From Massalongia carnosa (taxonomy: Eukaryota): DNA of 64,000 nt. Made by a program: the position numbers and the translations under genes. The stretch spans positions 1,612,001 through 1,676,000 of the forward strand of contig OZ287072.1 in the NCBI GenBank assembly GCA_965645245.1, read 5' to 3'. The notes beneath the pieces were generated by a model, which did no database searches, was not told the origin of the DNA, and worked only from the letters and a program-made list of their open reading frames with translations. This document shows, one piece after another, positions 25,901 through 38,415 of this stretch. Position 1 is the stretch's first letter. Each line of letters begins with the position of its first letter.

Positions 25901-26932
25901 CCCCAAGCTCCTTAATCTTTCTACGGAGAGCGTCGTGCTTTTCCGAGAGCAAGAGTAGCGACCTTGCCTTCTTTGCTTCTTCTTCGTAAAACTCTACATC
26001 TTTGAGGTTTTTGAATAGGTCTTGATCAATTTTGTCAATGCTTTGTTCGATCTGTAGATAGTCTCCGTCGAGGTGCTCCAGCTGGGTTCCTTTCATAAAA
26101 AATTTATATTTCTCTGAAGCAGAAGAACTGTTCAAGAACTGCCGTGCCATGTCTTGGGTCAGGACATTTATAGGGTTGTCAATTTGGAGCGCAAAATAGT
26201 CGCAAATCTCATCAAGATCAACCTTCCGATTAGAAATAAGTCTACCCGTGGAATTTTTCAGCCTAAAACTGCTAGATCCAGATCGAGAAAAATGACGCTC
26301 TATGATGATAGTATCACCATATATTTCATGCTGATATGCGCTATCCGATGTATTCTTTAGTTTAACGGTCAAGGTTGAGGATCTGCAAGCGTCAGCACAG
26401 GTTAAACATCTACAAAAGTCGTCACCAACTCTTGGCCTTCTTTAATAAAGCTTTTGAGGCTTTGGCCTCTGTTGGTAGCCGTTGCTTTCCCACCAAGACA
26501 GAGAGTAATCGCAGTCAGAATGGCACTCTTCCCACTTCCGTTGTGGCCTATAATGAAATTTATAAGGGGCCCAAGAGCAATCTCCAGATGAGTGTGACAC
26601 ATAAAATTTTGGCAAATGACCGACTCGATGATTCCGTTGTCCGCGGGCTCATTATCCATCGTCTTCTTGCCTTGTTGCTGGGTCATAAATTGTGTAGCTT
26701 GCTCCTGGAAATCATCTTCCTCTGTAAGCTCTTGCGAACTCTCACTTTGGGCTTCGTCGTAGGACACCCTAGCTTTCTTTCTCTATTGGGATATCAATAT
26801 AAGATAGCAAGAATAGGGATAAGATAGAAAACTTACAGACTCCTGTCGCAAACTTGACTGTGCACTCTCCACATTAACAACTTGAAAGTCTTCGTCTTCC
26901 AAGACGTTATGCTGCCTCTTCATAGGCGCCAT
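22922..26932 (-). CDS. SMC6: Structural maintenance of chromosomes protein 6
   Basis: [14 protein letters not shown], Walker [26 protein letters not shown], coiled coils and hinge, LSGGE signature, [18 protein letters not shown]; many GT-AG introns. Confidence 0.93.
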
Positions 26933-27015
26933 ATTAATTGTCGGACCTGCTCCGAACTTTGGGGAAGAAGCAACGGCACAGGAGGAAATAGACGAGTACC
27001 TAGTATAGTAGAGAG

Positions 27016-27052
27016 ACGCGCCGCGCCCATGTACTATTTGCCTCGCGACGCG
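27016..27052. promoter_or_regulatory. Cluster of MCB-like CGCG elements upstream of SMC6
   Basis: ACGCGCCGCG and TCGCGACGCG 85-120 bp upstream of the SMC6 ATG; MBF control of DNA replication/repair genes is established in ascomycetes, function here is inferred. Confidence 0.5.
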
Positions 27053-27218
27053 CTAAACTACATAACACAATTATGGCGGTCTATACTACCTACATAATCG
27101 TGCTAGACCACTTTGAGAGCACCCCTCAGTGCTTACCGGCTCAAAGACGCTACCGGCTCAAAGACGCATTTTCAACATTTTACACCTCAACTTCGATACG
27201 TCAACAAGCAACAACATA

Positions 27219-28873
27219 ATGGTCAATTCATATTCAGCTATCGAGGATCGAATTGACAGTGCAATTGACGCGTTACACGATGGTTTGTATACTAATTGTC
27301 GAGCTGCAGCTATAGCTTTTGACGTTGCCCCTCGTACGGTTCAAAAACGATGGAATGGAGGCAACTCCAAAAGCAGTCGACCTAGTACCAACAAAGCTCT
27401 GACGGATGAGCAAGAACAAGCTGTTCGTGACTACATCGAGCGATTGGACAAGGCCAACATGTGTGCGCGACCCAAATTGATCGTGGGGGCTGCAAATTAT
27501 TTGATTCGTTTTGAGAATCGTACTCTTGGTCATCAGTGGCTGAAGCGATTTCTTGATCGAAATCCCGAGCTTCATGTACGAAAACAGAAGCCTCTCGCAG
27601 TCGATCGAAAAAATAGTCACGACGTTAACGATATGGTTGAATATTTCAGCAACTTAGAAAGGGTGATGAGGGAAAAGAGAATAACGGAGCTGGATGTATG
27701 GAATATGGACGAAACAGGCTTTCGAACTGGATGCGGACGAGCTCAAATAGTAATCACCTTGGACCCACGAAAGCCTCTTCGTATGACTGATCCGGATAAT
27801 CGTGACTACATTACTTCTGTAGAGTGTATCAGCTCGGCCGGTGACGTTATTCCACCATTACTTATTCTTTCGGGTATTCATATTCTTCATAAATGGTGTC
27901 AACACAACGATCTCGACGGAGAGACGTTGATTGGGACCAGCGAGACCGGCTATTCAAATGACGATTTAAGCCATCGATTGGCTTCGTCATTTCATCGAGC
28001 ATACACGGACTAAAAGACGTGGAGCTTGGCTACTTCTAGTCATCGACGGGTTGGGTCTCATTCAACCATTCCGTTTTTGAAGCTGGCCACTGAAAATCAG
28101 ATCGTTCTATTTCGTCTTCCAGCACATTCTACTCATTTGACTCCGCCGTTAGATGTAGGTGTTTTTCAGCCGTACAAACACTATCATGCTGAGGCCATTG
28201 ATCATGCGATACGAATGGGAGACACGGAATTTGGAAAATTGGAATTTTTAGCCGCATTCCAGGAATTTCGCAACAAGACATTCAAATCATCTACTACTCG
28301 TCATGCATTCAGGACCACCGGCATTGTCCCATTCAATCCGAACATGGTACTCGACGTCATTCGTCAGAAGCAAGCTGCAGCCTTGGAAATTATGAATGAA
28401 CCCCGCACCCCGAGCCCCCCCACCTCTTCAATTTCATGAGCGCACCCCTCGAGGCCCCGAATCAATCAGAAAATTCGGTCACAGATTGCAAAGGGCATTG
28501 ACCGCGGCCGGGCCGATCGGTGGATGGATGAATAAAAAAACAGTGGACGGTTTTCAGAAATTTATTAGGGCCTCCATCACCTCCGCCAATACCCTAGATT
28601 TGACTACGCGGGACCTTCAGCAAGTGCAAAAAGCCACCACATCGCGTAAAAGTCGGGCCGCTCTCGGGGGTCAGGCAGCTGCAAAGGGTGGAGTCATAAA
28701 AGTCAGTCAATGTAGAGAATTATGTTCAACTCGTCAAAAAAAAAGAAGAAGAAAAGGCTAGACGAAAGGAACAAAGGGAGGCTAATAAGGGGGAAAAGGC
28801 CTCATCAACCCAGTTAGACAACGTCCTATTTTTACTAGGGCAGGGCCTGTTAGTAGAACAGACTGAGCCGTAG
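27219..28873 (+). pseudogene. E1 DDE_1 (pogo/Fot1) transposase with several small indels
   Basis: HTH N-terminus, WNMDETGF, HSTHLTPPLDVGVFQPYK; frame breaks near 27968, 28050, 28420 and 28740 relative to intact E2. Confidence 0.85.
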
Positions 28874-28992
28874 ATTTTAAACCTGAAATGAAGCTATTTG
28901 GACGTCTTTTCATGAAGGTCTGATTTTTTTAATGTTGAGGTGTTGAAAAATGCGTCTTTGAGCCGGTAGCGTCTTTGAGCCGGTAAGCACTA

Positions 28993-30975
28993 ATCGTGCT
29001 AGACCACTTTCGGAATGCAGAGAGCACCCCTTAGTGCTTACCGGCTCAAAGACGCTACCGGCTCAAAGACGCATTTTTCAACACCTCAACATTAAAAAAA
29101 TCAGACCTTCATGAAAAGACGTCCAAATAGCTTCATTTCGGGTTTAAAATCTACTGCTCAGTCTGTTCTACTAACAGGCCCTGCCCTAGTAAAAATCGGA
29201 CGTTGTCTAACTGGGTTGATGAGGCCTTTTTCCCCTTATTAGCCTCCCTTTGTTCCTTTCGTCTAGCCTTTTCTTCCTCTTTTTTTTGACGAATTGAACA
29301 TAATTCTCTACATTGACTGACTTTTATGACTCCACCCTTTGCAGCTACCTGACCCCCGAGAGCGGCCCGACTTTTACGCGATGTGGTGGCTTTTTGCACT
29401 TGCTGAAGGTCCCGCGTAGTCAAATCTAGGGTGTTGGCGGAGGTGATGGAGGCCCTAATAAATTTCTGAAAACCGTCCACTGTTTTTTTATCCATCCATC
29501 CACCGATCGGCCCGGCCGCGGTCAATGCCCTTTGCAATTTGTGACCGAATTTTCTGATTGATTCGGGGCCTCGAGGGGTGCGCTCATGAAATTGAAGAGG
29601 TAGGGGGCTCGGGGTGCGGGGTTCATTCCTAATTTCCAAGGCTGCAGCTTGCTTCTGACGAATGACGTCGAGTACCATGTTCGGATTGAATGGGACGATG
29701 CCGGTGGTCCTGAATGCATGACGAATAGTAGATGATTTGAATGTCTTGTTGCGAAATTCCTGGAATGCGGCTAAAAATTCCAATTTTCCAAATTCCGTGT
29801 CTCCCATTCGTATCGCATGATCAATGGCCTCAGCATGATAGTGTTTGTACGGCTGAAAAACACCTACATCTAACGGCTGAGTCAAATGAGTAGAATGTGC
29901 TGGAAGACGAAATAGAACGATCTGATTTTCAGTGGCCAGCTTCAAAAACGGAATGGTTGAATGAGACCCAAACCCGTCGATGACTAGAAGTAGCCAAGCT
30001 CCACGTCTTTTAGTCCGTGTATGCTCGATGAAATGACGAAGCCAATCCATGGCTAAATCGTCATTTGAATAGCCGGTCTCGCTGGTCCCAATCAACGTCT
30101 CTCCGTCGAGATCGTTGTGTTGACACCATTTATGAAGAATATGAATACCCGAAAGAATAAGTAATGGTGGAATAACGTCACCGGCCGAGCTGATACACTC
30201 TACAGAAGTAATGTAGTCACGATTATCCGGATCAGTCATACGAAGAGGCTTTCGTGGGTCCAAGGTGATTACTATTTGAGCTCGTCCGCATCCAATTCGA
30301 AAGCCTGTTTCGTCCATATTCCATACATCCAGCTCCGTTATTCCCTTTTCCCTCATCACCCTTTCTAATTTGCTGAAATATTCAACCATATCGTTAACGT
30401 CGTGACTATTTTTTCGATCGACTGCGAGAGGCTTCTGTTTTCGTACATGAAGCTCGGGATTTCGATCAAGAAATCGCTTCAGCCACTGATGACCAAGAGT
30501 ACGATTCTCAAAACGAATCAGATAATTTGCAGCCCCCACGATCAATTTGGGTCGCGCACACATGTTGGCCTTGTCCAATCGCTCGATGTAGTCACGAACA
30601 GCTTGTTCTTGCTCATCCGTCAGAGCTTTGTTGGTACTAGGTCGACTGCTTTTGGAGTTGCCTCCATTCCATCGTTTTTGAACCGTACGAGGGGCAACGT
30701 CAAAAGCTATAGCTGCAGCTCGACAATTAGTATACAAACCATCATGTAACGCGTCAATTGCACTGTCAATTCGATCCTCGATAGCTGAATATGAATTGAC
30801 CATTATGTTGTTGATTGTTGACGTGTCGAAGTTGAGGTGTAAAATGTTGAAAATGCGTCTTTGAGCCGGTAGCGTCTTTGAGCCGGTAAGCACTAAGGGG
30901 TGCTCTCTGCATTCCGAAAGTGGTCTAGCACGATTAAGGGGTGCTCTCTGCATTCCGAAAGTGGTCTAGCACGAT
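28993..30975 (-). mobile_element. Fot1/pogo-like DNA transposon copy E2, intact, inverted relative to E1, with one extra 41-bp terminal module
   Basis: TA 28991-92; ~90-bp TIRs at 28993-~29082 and ~30846-30934, each with 2x TACCGGCTCAAAGACGC; extra module 30937-30975; TA 30976-77. Assigning the extra module to E2 rather than E1 is inferred. Confidence 0.88.
29151..30803 (-). CDS. Intact 550-aa pogo/Fot1 transposase (HTH/CENP-B + DDE_1)
   Basis: Uninterrupted ORF from ATG 30803; catalytic motifs NMDETG, LVIDGFGSH, QPLDVGVF; basic NLS-like C-terminus. Confidence 0.93.
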   Translation of the reverse strand: MVNSYSAIEDRIDSAIDALHDGLYTNCRAAAIAFDVAPRTVQKRWNGGNSKSSRPSTNKALTDEQEQAVRDYIERLDKANMCARPKLIVGAANYLIRFENRTLGHQWLKRFLDRNPELHVRKQKPLAVDRKNSHDVNDMVEYFSKLERVMREKGITELDVWNMDETGFRIGCGRAQIVITLDPRKPLRMTDPDNRDYITSVECISSAGDVIPPLLILSGIHILHKWCQHNDLDGETLIGTSETGYSNDDLAMDWLRHFIEHTRTKRRGAWLLLVIDGFGSHSTIPFLKLATENQIVLFRLPAHSTHLTQPLDVGVFQPYKHYHAEAIDHAIRMGDTEFGKLEFLAAFQEFRNKTFKSSTIRHAFRTTGIVPFNPNMVLDVIRQKQAAALEIRNEPRTPSPLPLQFHERTPRGPESIRKFGHKLQRALTAAGPIGGWMDKKTVDGFQKFIRASITSANTLDLTTRDLQQVQKATTSRKSRAALGGQVAAKGGVIKVSQCRELCSIRQKKEEEKARRKEQREANKGKKASSTQLDNVRFLLGQGLLVEQTEQ

Positions 30976-31018
30976 TAAGGGGTGCTCTCTGCATTCCGAA
31001 AGTGGTCTAGCACGATTA
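30894..31018. repeat. Three perfect tandem copies of a 41-bp unit TA+AGGGGTGCTCTCTGCATTCCGAAAGTGGTCTAGCACGAT
   Basis: Units at 30896-30934, 30937-30975 and 30978-31016, each flanked by TA; reverse complement at 28993-29031 and, with a deletion, at 27097-27126. Confidence 0.95.
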
Positions 31019-33742
31019 TCCCCCACACTTTCGCTTGGTCGGCCTCGCTTAGTGCTAGCCAGCCATACAACCAGGACCAGCCATACGGAGTACAACCAAA
31101 ACCTTCAAATTTTTACCCACCACCTTTGAAATTCATAATCCACCACCATCATGCCTGAACCTTATACTATAATTGAGAATCGTATTTCAAAGGCAATTGA
31201 CGCCTTGAACTCGCGCAAGAACGCCAAATTAAGTGCAATTGCGCGAGAATTTAACGTGCCTAGAGAAATACTTCGTTCTCGAGTCAAAGGAGTTCCATTC
31301 AAAACGAAAGTACTAGGACTGCATAATCAACGTCTGAAATTCGATCAGGACCTGGCCCTACGTCTATATCTTCTGAAACTGGATTCTTTTGGCATATCGG
31401 CCCGCTTGCACATGATGAAAAGTGCTGCAAACTCAATCCTTCGACAAACTACTCCCGATTCAGTGTCTCCTCTCGGCTTGCATTGAACCAAAAGATGGTT
31501 GAAACGTCATCCGGATCTTCACAAGATTAAACGCAAACCTCTAACTGCTAATCGCAAAAATGCGCATGATTTGGAGTTGTTTAAGGCACATTTAAAATAT
31601 CAAGAAGTGATGAACAAATATGGCATAATCTCGAACGATTAGTGGAATTTTGATGAAATGGGTTATCGTATCGGCATGGCATGAAATGATTGAATAATTA
31701 CTGCTGATAATTCTCGAAGATCATACAGTGCTGATCCATCGAATCGAGAATCGCTGACTGCGGTGAAGTATATCAATGGGGCCGGGCAGGATATTCCCCC
31801 TTTTCTATGTGTGACTGGCGTTAACATACTCGCTTCCTGGGTAAAAAATGACCTGAATGATGATGTTGTCATCTCTACGTCTGACTTGGGTTGTATCAAT
31901 GATTGGTTGAGCTTGCAATGAATAAAAAACTTTGATAAAAACACTGAAAAAATCCGGAAAGAGGCTTGAAGACTTTTGATCATGAACGATTTTGGATCGC
32001 ATCATACTCGTGAATTTATAGAATATTGTGAAATCAAAAACATTGTTCCATTCGGATTACCTTCTCATGCCACACATCTCTTGCAGCCATTGAATGTGTG
32101 TGTGTTTCAGTTTCTGAAACACTAACACTCCGAGGCCGTCAATGAGGCAATTCAGAACGGAGACGAAACGTTCTCCAAAGTCGAATTTTTTGCTGCATTT
32201 AACTCGTTTCGATCACGAGCATTTAAATCATCAACAATAAAGTCCGCTTGAAAACAAACGGGCTTGATTCCATATAATCCGGAAATTGTTCTCGATAAAG
32301 TTCGAGAACTTCTTCCTTGTCCTCGTGAATCAACTCCAACTCCAACTCCGTCTCATATAGCACCTCAATCAGTACAAAAAAATCCTCGAATAGTGCGACA
32401 GTTGGCCGAGGTAGCCACAGAAATCATGATGCATCCGGCTTGTTCTGGTGATCTTGTACAAATGGTCAGCAAATTTGTGAAAGGAGCTGTGGCCGAAGTA
32501 CGAAAAGGCGATCTTCTCGAACAACGCTGGGAACAGCAAACCGCGGCCCAGACTGCTCGAAAAGCTCGTAAACGAGAGTCCAATAAGATTCTCCATCGCG
32601 GAGGTGTACTTACTGTTGGAGAGGCCCGTTCAATGGTTCGAGACAGGGAGGAGGTAGAGGAGGAGAGAGAGAAAGAACGAGGGGTCGCATGGGAAAAGCG
32701 CTATTGTACAGTCCCGTGTCAAAAGTTTCCGACTCTACCCGCGATTTTCGTGATTTCGCGTTTCAACCCCTTCAACCCATCATCTTTGACCTCATCATTT
32801 CACCATGCCACGCACTCCGTTGGCTTCAATTTCTGGTAATAAGCCTCGTAATACCGAATTGAATCACTTTTAAAGAGGTATGATTATTGGAGCCCAGGCG
32901 TTGGGGCATGCACCGGCCGAAATTGCAAAGACATTAAATGTGCCTCGAACCACCGTACTCCGCGAATTCATATTTGGAATTATTGAACGATAATCTGCTT
33001 GAAATTTGGGAACCGGGCTTCATTTTCATACAGGATAATGCACCGATTCATACTGCCAAAAAGGTGAAGAAATGGTTCGATGAAAACGGTATAACAATCA
33101 TCGATTGGCCTCCTTATTCTCCTGATTTGAACCCCATCGAGCACGTTTGGTATGTGCTCAAACAGCTCTTTTATCAAGTCAATCCGGACATCGATTCGGT
33201 GACTGGTAGTGATGATAAGGTCCGCGAGGTACTTTGGAAAGCGTTGGAAGAAGCATAGGCCTTGATAGATGACTAAATGTTGAGAAGTTTAATAGAGAGC
33301 ATGGAAAGGAGGATTGAAGCTTGCATCCAATCGAAAGGATGGTGGTATACGAAATATTAAAAATATATTTCTCAGCCCAAATTCCTTGCTAGAATGTATG
33401 TAATCATCGTACCAAGTTTCAAGGCATAAAATAAAAACTTGGTGGTTGATAATTCAAAGCAGTGGGGGGGGTAAAAAGTTAATGGGGAGCTGTCGGAAAC
33501 TTTTGACCTAGTACTGTACGGCTCTCACCAAGGTGGCTAGACAGTCAAAAGCACATAGAAAGATACTCATGACTAGGCGAATGAATAGTCACAAAAGATG
33601 GATGGTGATCATGAAGGAATTGTTGAAAAAAAACCCCGATGTATGTAGAATAGTTGATTTTTGGTTGTATGGCTGGTCCTGGTTGTATGGCTGGCTAGCA
33701 CTAGTTAAGCGAGGCCGACCGAGCGAAAGTGTGGGGCACGGA
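31019..33742 (+). mobile_element. Degenerate Fot1/pogo element E3 (different subfamily) carrying a nested Tc1-like element
   Basis: ~80-bp TIRs (CCCCACACTTTCGCT.GGTCGGCCTCGCTTA..GTGCTAGCCAGCCATACAACCAGGACCAGCCATAC) at 31019-~31101 and ~33659-33742; TA on both sides; transposase remnant from ATG 31151 (WNFDEMGYRIG, HLLQPLNVCVFQ) with many in-frame stops. Confidence 0.88.
32709..33516 (+). mobile_element. Internally deleted Tc1/impala-like (DDE_3) element, 808 bp, nested in E3
   Basis: TA|CAGTCCCGTGTCAAAAGTTTCCGAC ... GTCGGAAACTTTTGACCTAGTACTG|TA; N-terminal HTH from ATG 32805 fused to FIQDNAPIH...WPPYSPDLNPIEHVW; removing it restores the E3 frame (KRYCT-ALTKVARQ). Confidence 0.9.
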
Positions 33743-36219: not shown

Positions 36220-36511
36220 GATCTGCGTGACAGAAGTCCCATGTCTTCCCGCGTTGGGGGCTAGAAACCTATCCAACATCGCACAGCATTGGGTTACTTT
36301 TATTCTGTAAGAAACGTGTATCTAGAGAATGTCTAGGACGAGGTCTGAAGAACTTTCTCCATTTAGTGCCGGTGTCGGAGAAAACGGGCAATCCACTCGG
36401 TAAATCCAGGGGAACCTACTGAGCTTTCAGTGCGGTGCTTAGAATGGCTAAGGGTCAATACTCTGTAATCGTCGGCCTCGCTTAGCTGCCTCCATACGAG
36501 GTGTACGAGTA

Positions 36512-38285
36512 CCACCTCTAGTCGGGGAAAGCGGTCTGCGTAGGCAAGCGATCTGCGTAGTTTCAATCTCAGGATTCACCCATTTTACCACCTATTTTGC
36601 AGCTTTTTGCAACACTTCTCGACCGCAACCTACGACCGTTAGCTGTTATTATTCATACCATAGATATCAACTGCACATCCTAACTGCTCATTTATCAACC
36701 GGGAATGCATTATATTTTTTCCAGTTTCACCAGTTTTATCACCTATTTACAACTCATTTGCGACGCCGTCTCATCATGATTTACAACCTCCATTTGCTTT
36801 ATTTTCAACCTCATTTGCAAATATTATTAATAAGTAGATATATATCAACTGTGCGTTCTAATAGTTACTCCTAGTCTGACGATAGCCCCCTTGATAAAAG
36901 TTAAACTGCTCATCCTCATCACCCTCATAACCCTCATCATTCTCATTATTCTTAGTGTTGATCTCTGCAAGGACATCTTGGATAGCCTTATCATGCCAAT
37001 GCTTATAGGGTTGAAATACACCCACATCAAGGGGTTGCATACAATGAGTCAGATGTGGTATCAGGGGGAGAGGGCGAATGTGATTTTCATTGGCAAGCTT
37101 TATAAACTCAGGGGTGCAATAACTAAGTCCCATGGTTATCCATGAGCATCAATTTCTACTGCTTTGTAGGCCCTGAGTTTGTATTCGCAATGAAATGCTT
37201 CAAAAATTCAATGGCTATTTTATCGGTGATGAACCCACTTTTTGATACTTCAGTCAGAGTCCCCGTGGGCAGCCCCTCTTGGAACCAGTTCTGCATTATT
37301 CTACGACCTTGCATAATTAAAACGGGAGAAGGTGGTTGATGACCGGCGGCGTTAATGCTTTCGATTATGATGAGAGATTTGCGATTTTCTGGACTGATTG
37401 AATAGAACTCCTTAATATCTGATGGAACTAGAATTTCATGACCCTTCATACACTCAACCCGAAATCCTGCTTTATCAAAGTTCCAGGTATCTTGTGAATG
37501 AGTTATCCCCAACTCTGCAAGAACCCGCTGATATCGATCAAACCATAATCTTACATCTGACTCCTGAGCCGCAGTATATCGAACAACTGCCAGCGGCTTA
37601 GTCTTTATCTTGTGCAGGCCATTGTCTTTCCACCGTTGCCTAAACCACCGCGGACTTGGATCATTGAATTCGGCATCTTGAGCACGTTTCAGAGTCTTAA
37701 TGGCAGCAAAAGTCACTTTATGAGTAGGTTGAATGCTATACGCATTCAGAGATCGAATGAATTCGTGAATGGCTCTGACCTGATGCTCCTCCAGTATTTT
37801 GTTCTACCCTTCAATTTTCTTCGGCGGCGTCTTTTCACGTTCAATTGAACTGTATAGAGTGATGTCGACGAGGTTGAAGATTCGAGCAGCGCAAACGATG
37901 CTCTCCTTGGGGTTTTCTAATAAAACTGCTTAGCATTTTGCACGCGCGTTGCAATAGAATCACTGGTTTTAATAAGGTTCTTATTCATGATGCTGCTGCT
38001 ATTCATGATTGAGGTGGGGAGCGGTTGATGAAATAGGGAGAGAGTGATTGACGAAATAGGAGGCATGCAACTGATGCGGTCGCGATTGAATAAATGTGAA
38101 TATCCCGGTTAATCAATGAGTAGTTAGGATGTGCAGTTGATATCTATGGTATGAATAATAACAGCTAATGGTCGTAGGTTGCGGTCGAGAAGTGTTGCAA
38201 AAAGCTGCAAAATAGGTGGTAAAATGGGTGAATCCTGAGATTGAAACTACGCAGATCGCTTGCCTACGCCCCCGACTAGAGGTGG
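36512..38285 (-). mobile_element. Defective Fot1/pogo element E4 with long (~190 bp) TIRs
   Basis: TA|CCACCTCTAGTCGGGG...ATCAACCGGGA (36512-~36704) mirrored at ~38102-38285|TA; frameshifted, internally deleted transposase ~36858-38006 (WNFDKAGFR, THCMQPLDVGVFQPYKH). Confidence 0.9.
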
Positions 38286-38415
38286 TACATACTCTCGTAC
38301 GGAGTACTCTGTACGCCGTCCTGATCGCTGGTCTGTGCCTGATTAGATAAGATAACGAGGCGCATTAACCTTGCAACTCGTAAGTGAAAACCACCTCGTC
38401 CACTTACAGATTGCA

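Follow-up and report, generated by a model that had tools for sequence, protein, structure and literature searches.

We analyzed a 64,000-nucleotide stretch of the Massalongia carnosa genome (positions 1,612,001 to 1,676,000 of contig OZ287072.1; "the window"), in which two copies of one pogo-like transposon family, E1 and E2, lie together at 27095-31018 of the window. Each end of such an element can be described as an inner part, an internal TA dinucleotide, and an outer module of 39 nt that we call U (U' in the opposite orientation). The locus is intergenic, with an SMC-type gene on one side and a gene for a pyridoxal phosphate (PLP) enzyme on the other; the window is otherwise gene-rich. 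E2 lies at the TA inside the right terminal repeat of E1, and this nesting is well supported. Beyond E2, the composite ends in a perfect array of three 41-bp units. We think it somewhat likelier true than false that a single nested insertion took place here and that the number of repeats changed afterwards.

Anatomy of the composite

From left to right, the parts are TA-U-CA-E1(+)-TA-U-TA-E2(-)-3x(TA+U')-TA:

27095-27096 (no strand): TA, left flank of the whole composite, the target duplication of E1; 27094-27114 pairs with 30999-31019
27097-27126 (+): left outer module U of E1, 30 nt, with a 9-base deletion (E1 versus E2 alignment)
27127-27128 (no strand): CA in E1 at the position of E2's internal TA (E1/E2 alignment); the same CA is found in P0123, P0125, P0126, and P0128 (see below)
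27129-28990 (+): inner part of E1, a pogo body of canonical size with 45-nt repeats and a broken open reading frame (ORF)
28991-28992 (no strand): TA within the right terminal repeat of E1, the first of two target copies resulting from the insertion of E2
28993-30934 (-): E2, a full-length element of 1942 bp with 87-nt terminal repeats (100%)
28993-29031, 29032-29033, 29034-30893, 30894-30895, and 30896-30934: the parts of E2, namely U, TA, inner part, TA, and U'
29039-29072 (+): two tandem 17-bp repeats (TACCGGCTCAAAGACGC), 5 bp from E2's internal TA
27134-27167, 28952-28985, and 30855-30888: further copies of the pair of 17-bp repeats
29151-30803 (-): intact transposase ORF of E2, 550 amino acids, with DDE_1 and HTH_Tnp_Tc5 domains
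30935-30977 (no strand): TA+U'+TA; under nesting, the second copy of the E2 target followed by E1's own right outer module
30978-31018 (no strand): an extra U'+TA, the third 41-bp unit, beyond what nesting explains

The original prediction gave this layout, which is present, with a full module and a TA at every end. The left end of E1 departs from that description: its U lacks the 9 bases CGGAATGCA when aligned to E2, so that it has 30 nt instead of 39, and it is followed by CA, not TA. The terminal repeats of E2, in contrast, are 100% complementary over all 87 nt (28991-29077 versus 30850-30936). The three TA+U' copies are at 30894-30934, 30935-30975, and 30976-31016, and Tandem Repeats Finder reports a period of 41, 3.0 copies, and 100% matches at 30894-31018. 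The closing TA (31017-31018) is the composite's right flank and also adjoins another element, F, which is described below.

Four copies of the full 39-nt U, all free of mismatches, are in the window (none expected from shuffles), as are four of the inner 22-mer. With blastn and tblastn, we found no further copy of E, solo U, or miniature inverted-repeat transposable element (MITE) in the window.

The inner part of E is 1860 bp long, begins with GTGCT and ends with AGCAC, has TA on both sides, and has 45-nt terminal repeats. Its 17-bp repeats are 5 bp from the inner TA and 46 bp from the outer end. The terminal repeats of Trem, Aft1, and Tan1, which are fungal pogo-like elements, also consist of two 17-bp direct repeats, and the TremA consensus is 1850 bp (PMC2836289; this and the other papers cited here were available in part, and what we say of them is limited to those parts). 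By comparison with these elements, the 17-bp repeats of E are putative transposase binding sites. The inner part of E matches a canonical fungal pogo element, so U is an extra module outside the canonical element.

E2 is intact and E1 is decayed

The assignment to the pogo/Fot1 family, which was part of the original prediction, is confirmed. The E2 protein matches Pfam DDE_1 (E = 6.4e-21, 75 bits, with a cut-off of 22) and, at its N terminus, HTH_Tnp_Tc5 (E = 6.2e-07, 29.7 bits, with a cut-off of 22.2). E2 therefore has all three features of the group: a DDE_1 domain, a helix-turn-helix (HTH) domain of the Tc5/CENP-B type, and a TA target-site duplication. TA flanks both E2 (28991-2 and 30935-6) and the composite (27095-6 and 31017-8). 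From the motifs DETG, VIDG, and PLD, and not from a structure, we take D164, D276, and D312 to be the candidate catalytic triad, with 35 residues between the last two (DD35D).

The inner parts of E1 and E2 differ by 23 substitutions in 1859 aligned positions, and four single-base insertions or deletions in E1 break its transposase frame. Judging by these differences and by the 9-base deletion in its left U, E1 appears to be an older, decayed copy of the same family and E2 a young, intact one. A decayed host and an intact guest are what is expected for nesting.

The E2 protein is in a cluster (P0002, the window's own protein) of 30 member sequences from 8 contigs. Relatives beyond this cluster are at most 77% identical, and the matches with names come from ascomycetes (35-38% identity). 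When we searched for longer proteins whose N terminus reads through the terminal repeat, P0002 was the only result. Exact scans for the inner terminus gave no matches in prokaryote genome contigs or viral contigs. In metagenome contigs there was a single exact match, which we rejected as a chance match inside an unrelated coding region. A locus search guided by the E2 protein gave 61 viral and 184 prokaryote pattern matches, none of which was confirmed as a relative.

U belongs to the mobile unit

A complete E2, with both of its U modules, sits between the inner right end of E1 and a U' that E1 otherwise lacks. According to the original prediction, E2 went into the internal TA of the right terminal repeat of E1, which would account for two of the U' units; the TA...TA bracket and the extra U' agree with this.

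We also considered other copies of the family. Five public runs from three studies, one run labelled as a lichen metagenome and the others from two organisms, contain 0.57-0.68 of the sampled words of 26900-31300; two further runs (X6 and X7) contain next to none. We aligned the Logan contigs of four of these five runs to 28930-31300, a range that covers E2 and the array and, to keep clear of the long inverted repeat, leaves the left end and body of E1 outside. Contigs that depart from the window give loose ends or joints; 24 of the 135 loose ends and 7 joints were listed. We checked the position convention at loose end 31086, where the loose letters are the window's own right end of F.

The best-supported loose ends with mutually differing flanks are at 28990/28991 (3 + 2 contigs of run X4) and at 30937 (4 contigs of X4 and 2 of X1), with an agreement of 0.54-0.68. 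At the left end, contigs of other copies start at the T of the TA at 28991. These loose ends are at the outer edge of U plus TA, which implies that other copies end there and that U belongs to the mobile unit, as had been proposed. Depth is far higher over E2 than over the neighboring element, which, as depth is not copy number, only hints at a multi-copy family.

The same contigs bear on whether the composite is real. A 1554-bp contig of run X1 is identical to E2, and contigs of X2 and X4 carry the E1-type letters at 29155, 29277, 29492, and 29602. The E1 and E2 types are thus both real sequences. Logan contigs are built from 31-letter words, which by our reasoning are too short for counting perfect repeats of 41 bp, and the count of three units is the assembly's own. 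An assembly error might thus be suspected in the third unit, or in the whole count, in a perfect short tandem beside a 1.9-kb inverted duplication: the three units are 100% identical, and the support comes from contigs, not from individual reads. However, the two long arms differ at 27 places, which argues against a collapsed or mirrored artefact, and the E1 and E2 types were both seen in independent runs. Also, single reads of any platform span an array of 123 bp. We consider an assembly error very improbable. We also rejected a fold-back inverted duplication as the origin of the two arms: the 43-bp spacer is a complete, TA-flanked U in the orientation of E2, the arms differ at those 27 places, and E1-type letters are present in other runs.

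Another explanation would make the 1860-bp inner part the true transposon. U-TA-U' would then be a palindromic landing site, or else both kinds of end would be usable, and the extra U' would have been left by excision at an inner end. The inner part alone does have the size and the paired 17-bp terminal repeats of a canonical fungal pogo element (PMC2836289), and its 17-bp repeats are 5 bp from the inner TA as opposed to 46 bp from the outer end. However, it is clear that a unit with U has moved, because the duplicated TA encloses E2 and its two U modules. Furthermore, each of E and F pairs its inner part with an outer module of its own. A weaker objection comes from the 24 loose ends (of 135) and 7 joints listed: none of these loose ends is at the inner TA, and none of these joints connects U to U'. 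Overall, we find this explanation distinctly unlikely, if less so than an assembly error.

Terminal repeats of other copies

The transposase frame continues upstream across the terminal repeat without a stop, and short ORFs on degenerate copies can therefore be read for what this repeat contains. P0125, which stands for two contigs, reads from the flank through TA, a full U, CA, and the inner terminus to one 17-bp repeat. P0126, from another assembly and with the same flank as P0125, has U and CA and no 17-bp repeat. P0123 has just the last ~10 bases of U, then CA and two 17-bp repeats. Finally, P0128 is on a 2859-bp contig from another organism and reads from the flank into a full U, then CA, the 17-bp repeats, and an interior that does not encode a transposase. 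Judging from this arrangement, another species may have a nonautonomous (MITE-like) derivative, P0128, that shares this compound terminal repeat.

Three patterns emerge. First, none of the three other readable 5' ends (the P0125/P0126 locus, P0128, and P0123, which has just a stub of U) has a second U. Second, the internal dinucleotide is CA in all four of the other readable sequences (P0123, P0125, P0126, and P0128) and at the left end of E1, whereas it is TA at both ends of E2, at the right end of E1, and at both ends of F; the internal TA is therefore not a fixed feature of the family. Third, the number of 17-bp repeats varies: there are two in E1, E2, and P0123, one in P0125, and none in P0126. 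A 35-base skip at 30855-30889 in contigs of X2 and X4 matches the P0126 version with no repeats. The variation between two, one, and zero, and between P0125 and P0126 at a single locus, shows that tandem parts of these repeats change in number without transposition. Slippage, unequal exchange, or repair synthesis would therefore be sufficient for a change from two 41-bp units to three.

A probable history: one nested insertion, then a change in repeat number

The sequence of events that we favor is as follows. E2 would have entered, inverted, at the TA between U and the inner part of E1's right terminal repeat. Duplication of that TA would have set E2's U' and E1's U' head to tail, giving two 41-bp units. 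The third unit most likely arose later, by slippage, unequal exchange, or repair synthesis in the perfect tandem, and it is probably not a record of another round of transposition. The choice of TA was probably not random, as it is 5 bp from the paired 17-bp repeats, the expected transposase binding sites. Transposase already bound to the resident copy could have tethered the incoming complex at that TA. Just 2 of the 88 TAs of the element are internal TAs, so even given an insertion within a copy, the chance of hitting one would be about 2% (a post hoc estimate). As part of the same reading, and with the same modest confidence, we regard nesting as an occasional outcome and not as the normal mode of the family: the other copies have one U per end and are at ordinary TA sites.

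Several observations weigh against this reading. One contig each from X1 and X5 runs from U'-TA-AGGGGTGCTC into other sequence (loose end 30946); this hints at a second, partial U'-TA-U' junction, which is what repeated self-insertion would predict. The three units are identical and do not discriminate between mechanisms, so that slippage is something we infer. The observed variation in the 17-bp repeats is loss, not gain. The sample of short ORFs is tiny and consists of degenerate copies. Finally, E1 itself sits on a TA that adjoins the terminus of F, and together with the sequence TA-GT-TA in F (see below), this suggests that, within these 7 kb, at least two events took place at TAs of terminal repeats.

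In the explanation given by the original prediction, the family repeatedly inserts at the TA of its own terminal repeat and a nested copy later moves with its host's outer U'. E2 would then have arrived with two U' modules, and the array would count rounds of transposition. This would explain all three units by a single mechanism. It would also account for the partial second junction in X1 and X5, for the further events at terminal-repeat TAs nearby (E1 at the flanking TA of F, and the footprint-like TA-GT-TA within F), and for a landing at an internal TA despite odds of ~2 in 88. On the other hand, the second U that it predicts is at none of the three other readable 5' ends, the best-supported contig ends have a single U, TA, and differing flanks, and the site is CA instead of TA in all four other sequences and at the left end of E1. 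An origin of the third unit in this way, which would depend on the use of an alternative end, is mechanically possible. The limited evidence from other copies leans against a regular ratchet of modules, and we consider this explanation unlikely. The further proposals that the array is a countable record of rounds and that self-nesting is a safe-harbor strategy are not supported by the little outside evidence. The preferred reading remains one nested insertion and a later change in the number of units.

Hints of targeting in element F

Immediately to the right of the composite is a second kind of pogo-like element:

31019-33738 (+): element F, degenerate and pogo-like, ~36% identical to the E2 protein over ~500 residues
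33702-33707 (no strand): TA-GT-TA where the right terminal repeat of F has its internal TA, which makes it 4 bases longer at this point than the left one

F has compound terminal repeats of 68 nt with an outer-TA-GTGCT layout. E has the same layout. In F, the outer part is 31 nt long, the TA is at 31050-1, and GTGCTAGCC and a pair of CCAGCCATAC repeats follow. Within the window, the motif TAGTGCTWRSC occurs only at the ends of E and F (5 matches versus 0.18 expected). The terminal 68 nt of F are at high depth in all four runs and share the common loose end at 31086, which implies that other copies of F continue differently there.

The TA-GT-TA in F looks like the excision footprint of a Tc1/mariner-type element with GT...AC ends, according to the footprint rule in PMC2874221. 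GT...AC ends are the inner ends of E and F; they are not the outer ends of F or of E (AT...AT). This footprint-like mark is thus a further point for the explanation in which the inner part is the transposon. Other sources of the mark were rejected. Abortive cleavage at a single end would leave complementary overhangs, which by reasoning alone would religate without any gain of bases. A Tc1-like element nested in F and a third pogo-like element, G (both described below), have ends that begin with CAGT... and CCACC..., respectively, instead of GT...AC.

Together with the position of E1 on the TA next to F and the partial U'-TA-U' junction in X1 and X5, these observations suggest that TAs in or beside the terminal repeats of this clade were hit more than once and that inner ends are perhaps active; each hint is a single observation. 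A bolder proposal, which we regard as doubtful, is that these elements form a clade of fungal pogo elements whose compound repeats have two TAs that could serve for cleavage or as targets, and whose transposase steers insertions to TAs in or beside resident repeats, as a eukaryotic counterpart of the targeting of inverted repeats (IRs) by the bacterial element IS30. U would then be a fossil of this process and the array the process in action.

As for U itself, it starts (28993-29031) with ATC-GTGCTAGACC, which is similar to GTGCTTACC and GTGCTAGCC, the inner termini of E and F, respectively, and it holds a small internal inverted pair, GTGCT...AGCAC. Going by its letters, the outer module may be derived from an old terminus. 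We also asked if U is homologous to the outer module of F. The two share only the 8-mer CACTTTCG, and 21 of 500 shuffles score as well, so we did not rely on this.

Comparison with known systems

E resembles fungal pogo/Fot1-type elements (Fot1, Pot2, Tan1, Aft1, and Trem) in its DDE_1 domain, its Tc5/CENP-B-type HTH domain, its TA flanks, its body of ~1.85 kb, and its two 17-bp repeats. Unlike these elements, E adds the 39-nt outer module beyond the TA, which gives compound repeats of 86 nt, and F likewise has an outer module. That is, the inner part has 45-nt repeats with two 17-bp units ending at a TA, and the mobile unit carries 41 more bases outside of it. In the available parts of the literature on fungal pogo-like elements, we did not find a compound terminal repeat of this layout described.

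Tc1-like elements of the inverted repeat/direct repeat (IR/DR) type, such as Sleeping Beauty, also have long terminal repeats, each of them with two direct repeats that bind the transposase (PMC5224488). However, their outer binding site is at the cleaved end, whereas in E both repeats are close to the internal TA and absent from the outer module. Family copies within or beside copies of the same family are known from the plant MITEs Castaway and Gaijin and from P-element constructs, in which self-insertions or multimers are found above expectation (PMC5172404, PMC4744444). No single preferred position in a terminal repeat and no growing array of modules were reported for these.

The nearest parallel to terminal-repeat targeting is bacterial. 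IS30 integrates next to an inverted repeat of a resident copy, as a second class of target beside ordinary sites, and IS911 also shows targeted transposition (PMC9333248). Similarly, E2 integrated in the terminal repeat of a resident copy of itself. However, IS30 moves by copy-out-paste-in via an IR-IR junction and makes new IR-IR joints, whereas E2 has the look of plain cut-and-paste, with a TA duplication in the repeat. The transposase families also differ (that of E2 is DDE_1/pogo-type), and our case is known from sequence alone. What could be counted as IS30-type targeting here is one clear case (E2 in E1), one insertion beside a relative (E1 at F), and one footprint-like mark (in F). Other copies of the family are at unrelated sites. 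A hallmark of IS30 has no match: there is no abutted end-to-end junction, and the ends are separated by TA duplications. In a literature search that covered few subscription journals, and so leaves absence unproven, we found no direct precedent among eukaryotes for the insertion of an element into the terminal repeat of its own family.

If terminal-repeat targeting is true, it would be a rare case of a eukaryotic cut-and-paste transposase choosing its target via its own binding sites, and it would account for the origin of long, modular terminal repeats. E2, being intact and recently active, would then suggest itself as a tool for site-directed integration. If instead a single chance nesting and slippage are the explanation, this is a cluster of nested transposons of an ordinary kind.

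Neighboring elements

Two further elements were noted. First, F contains, at ~32708-33517, a nested Tc1-like element with an internal deletion. This nested element has TA flanks, 28-nt repeats starting with CAGTCCCG, and a DDE_3 fragment at 32938-33258. Second, the pogo-like element G is at ~36510-38287, with ~190-nt repeats starting with CCACCTCTAGTCGGGG, TA flanks, and a 10-base extra piece in its left repeat. The flanks of G (36465-36508 and 38289-38330) resemble a terminal repeat of the F type (GTCGGCCTCGCT-TA-GCTGCC...). G seems to be inside a remnant of such a repeat, ~23 nt inward of the remnant's internal TA.

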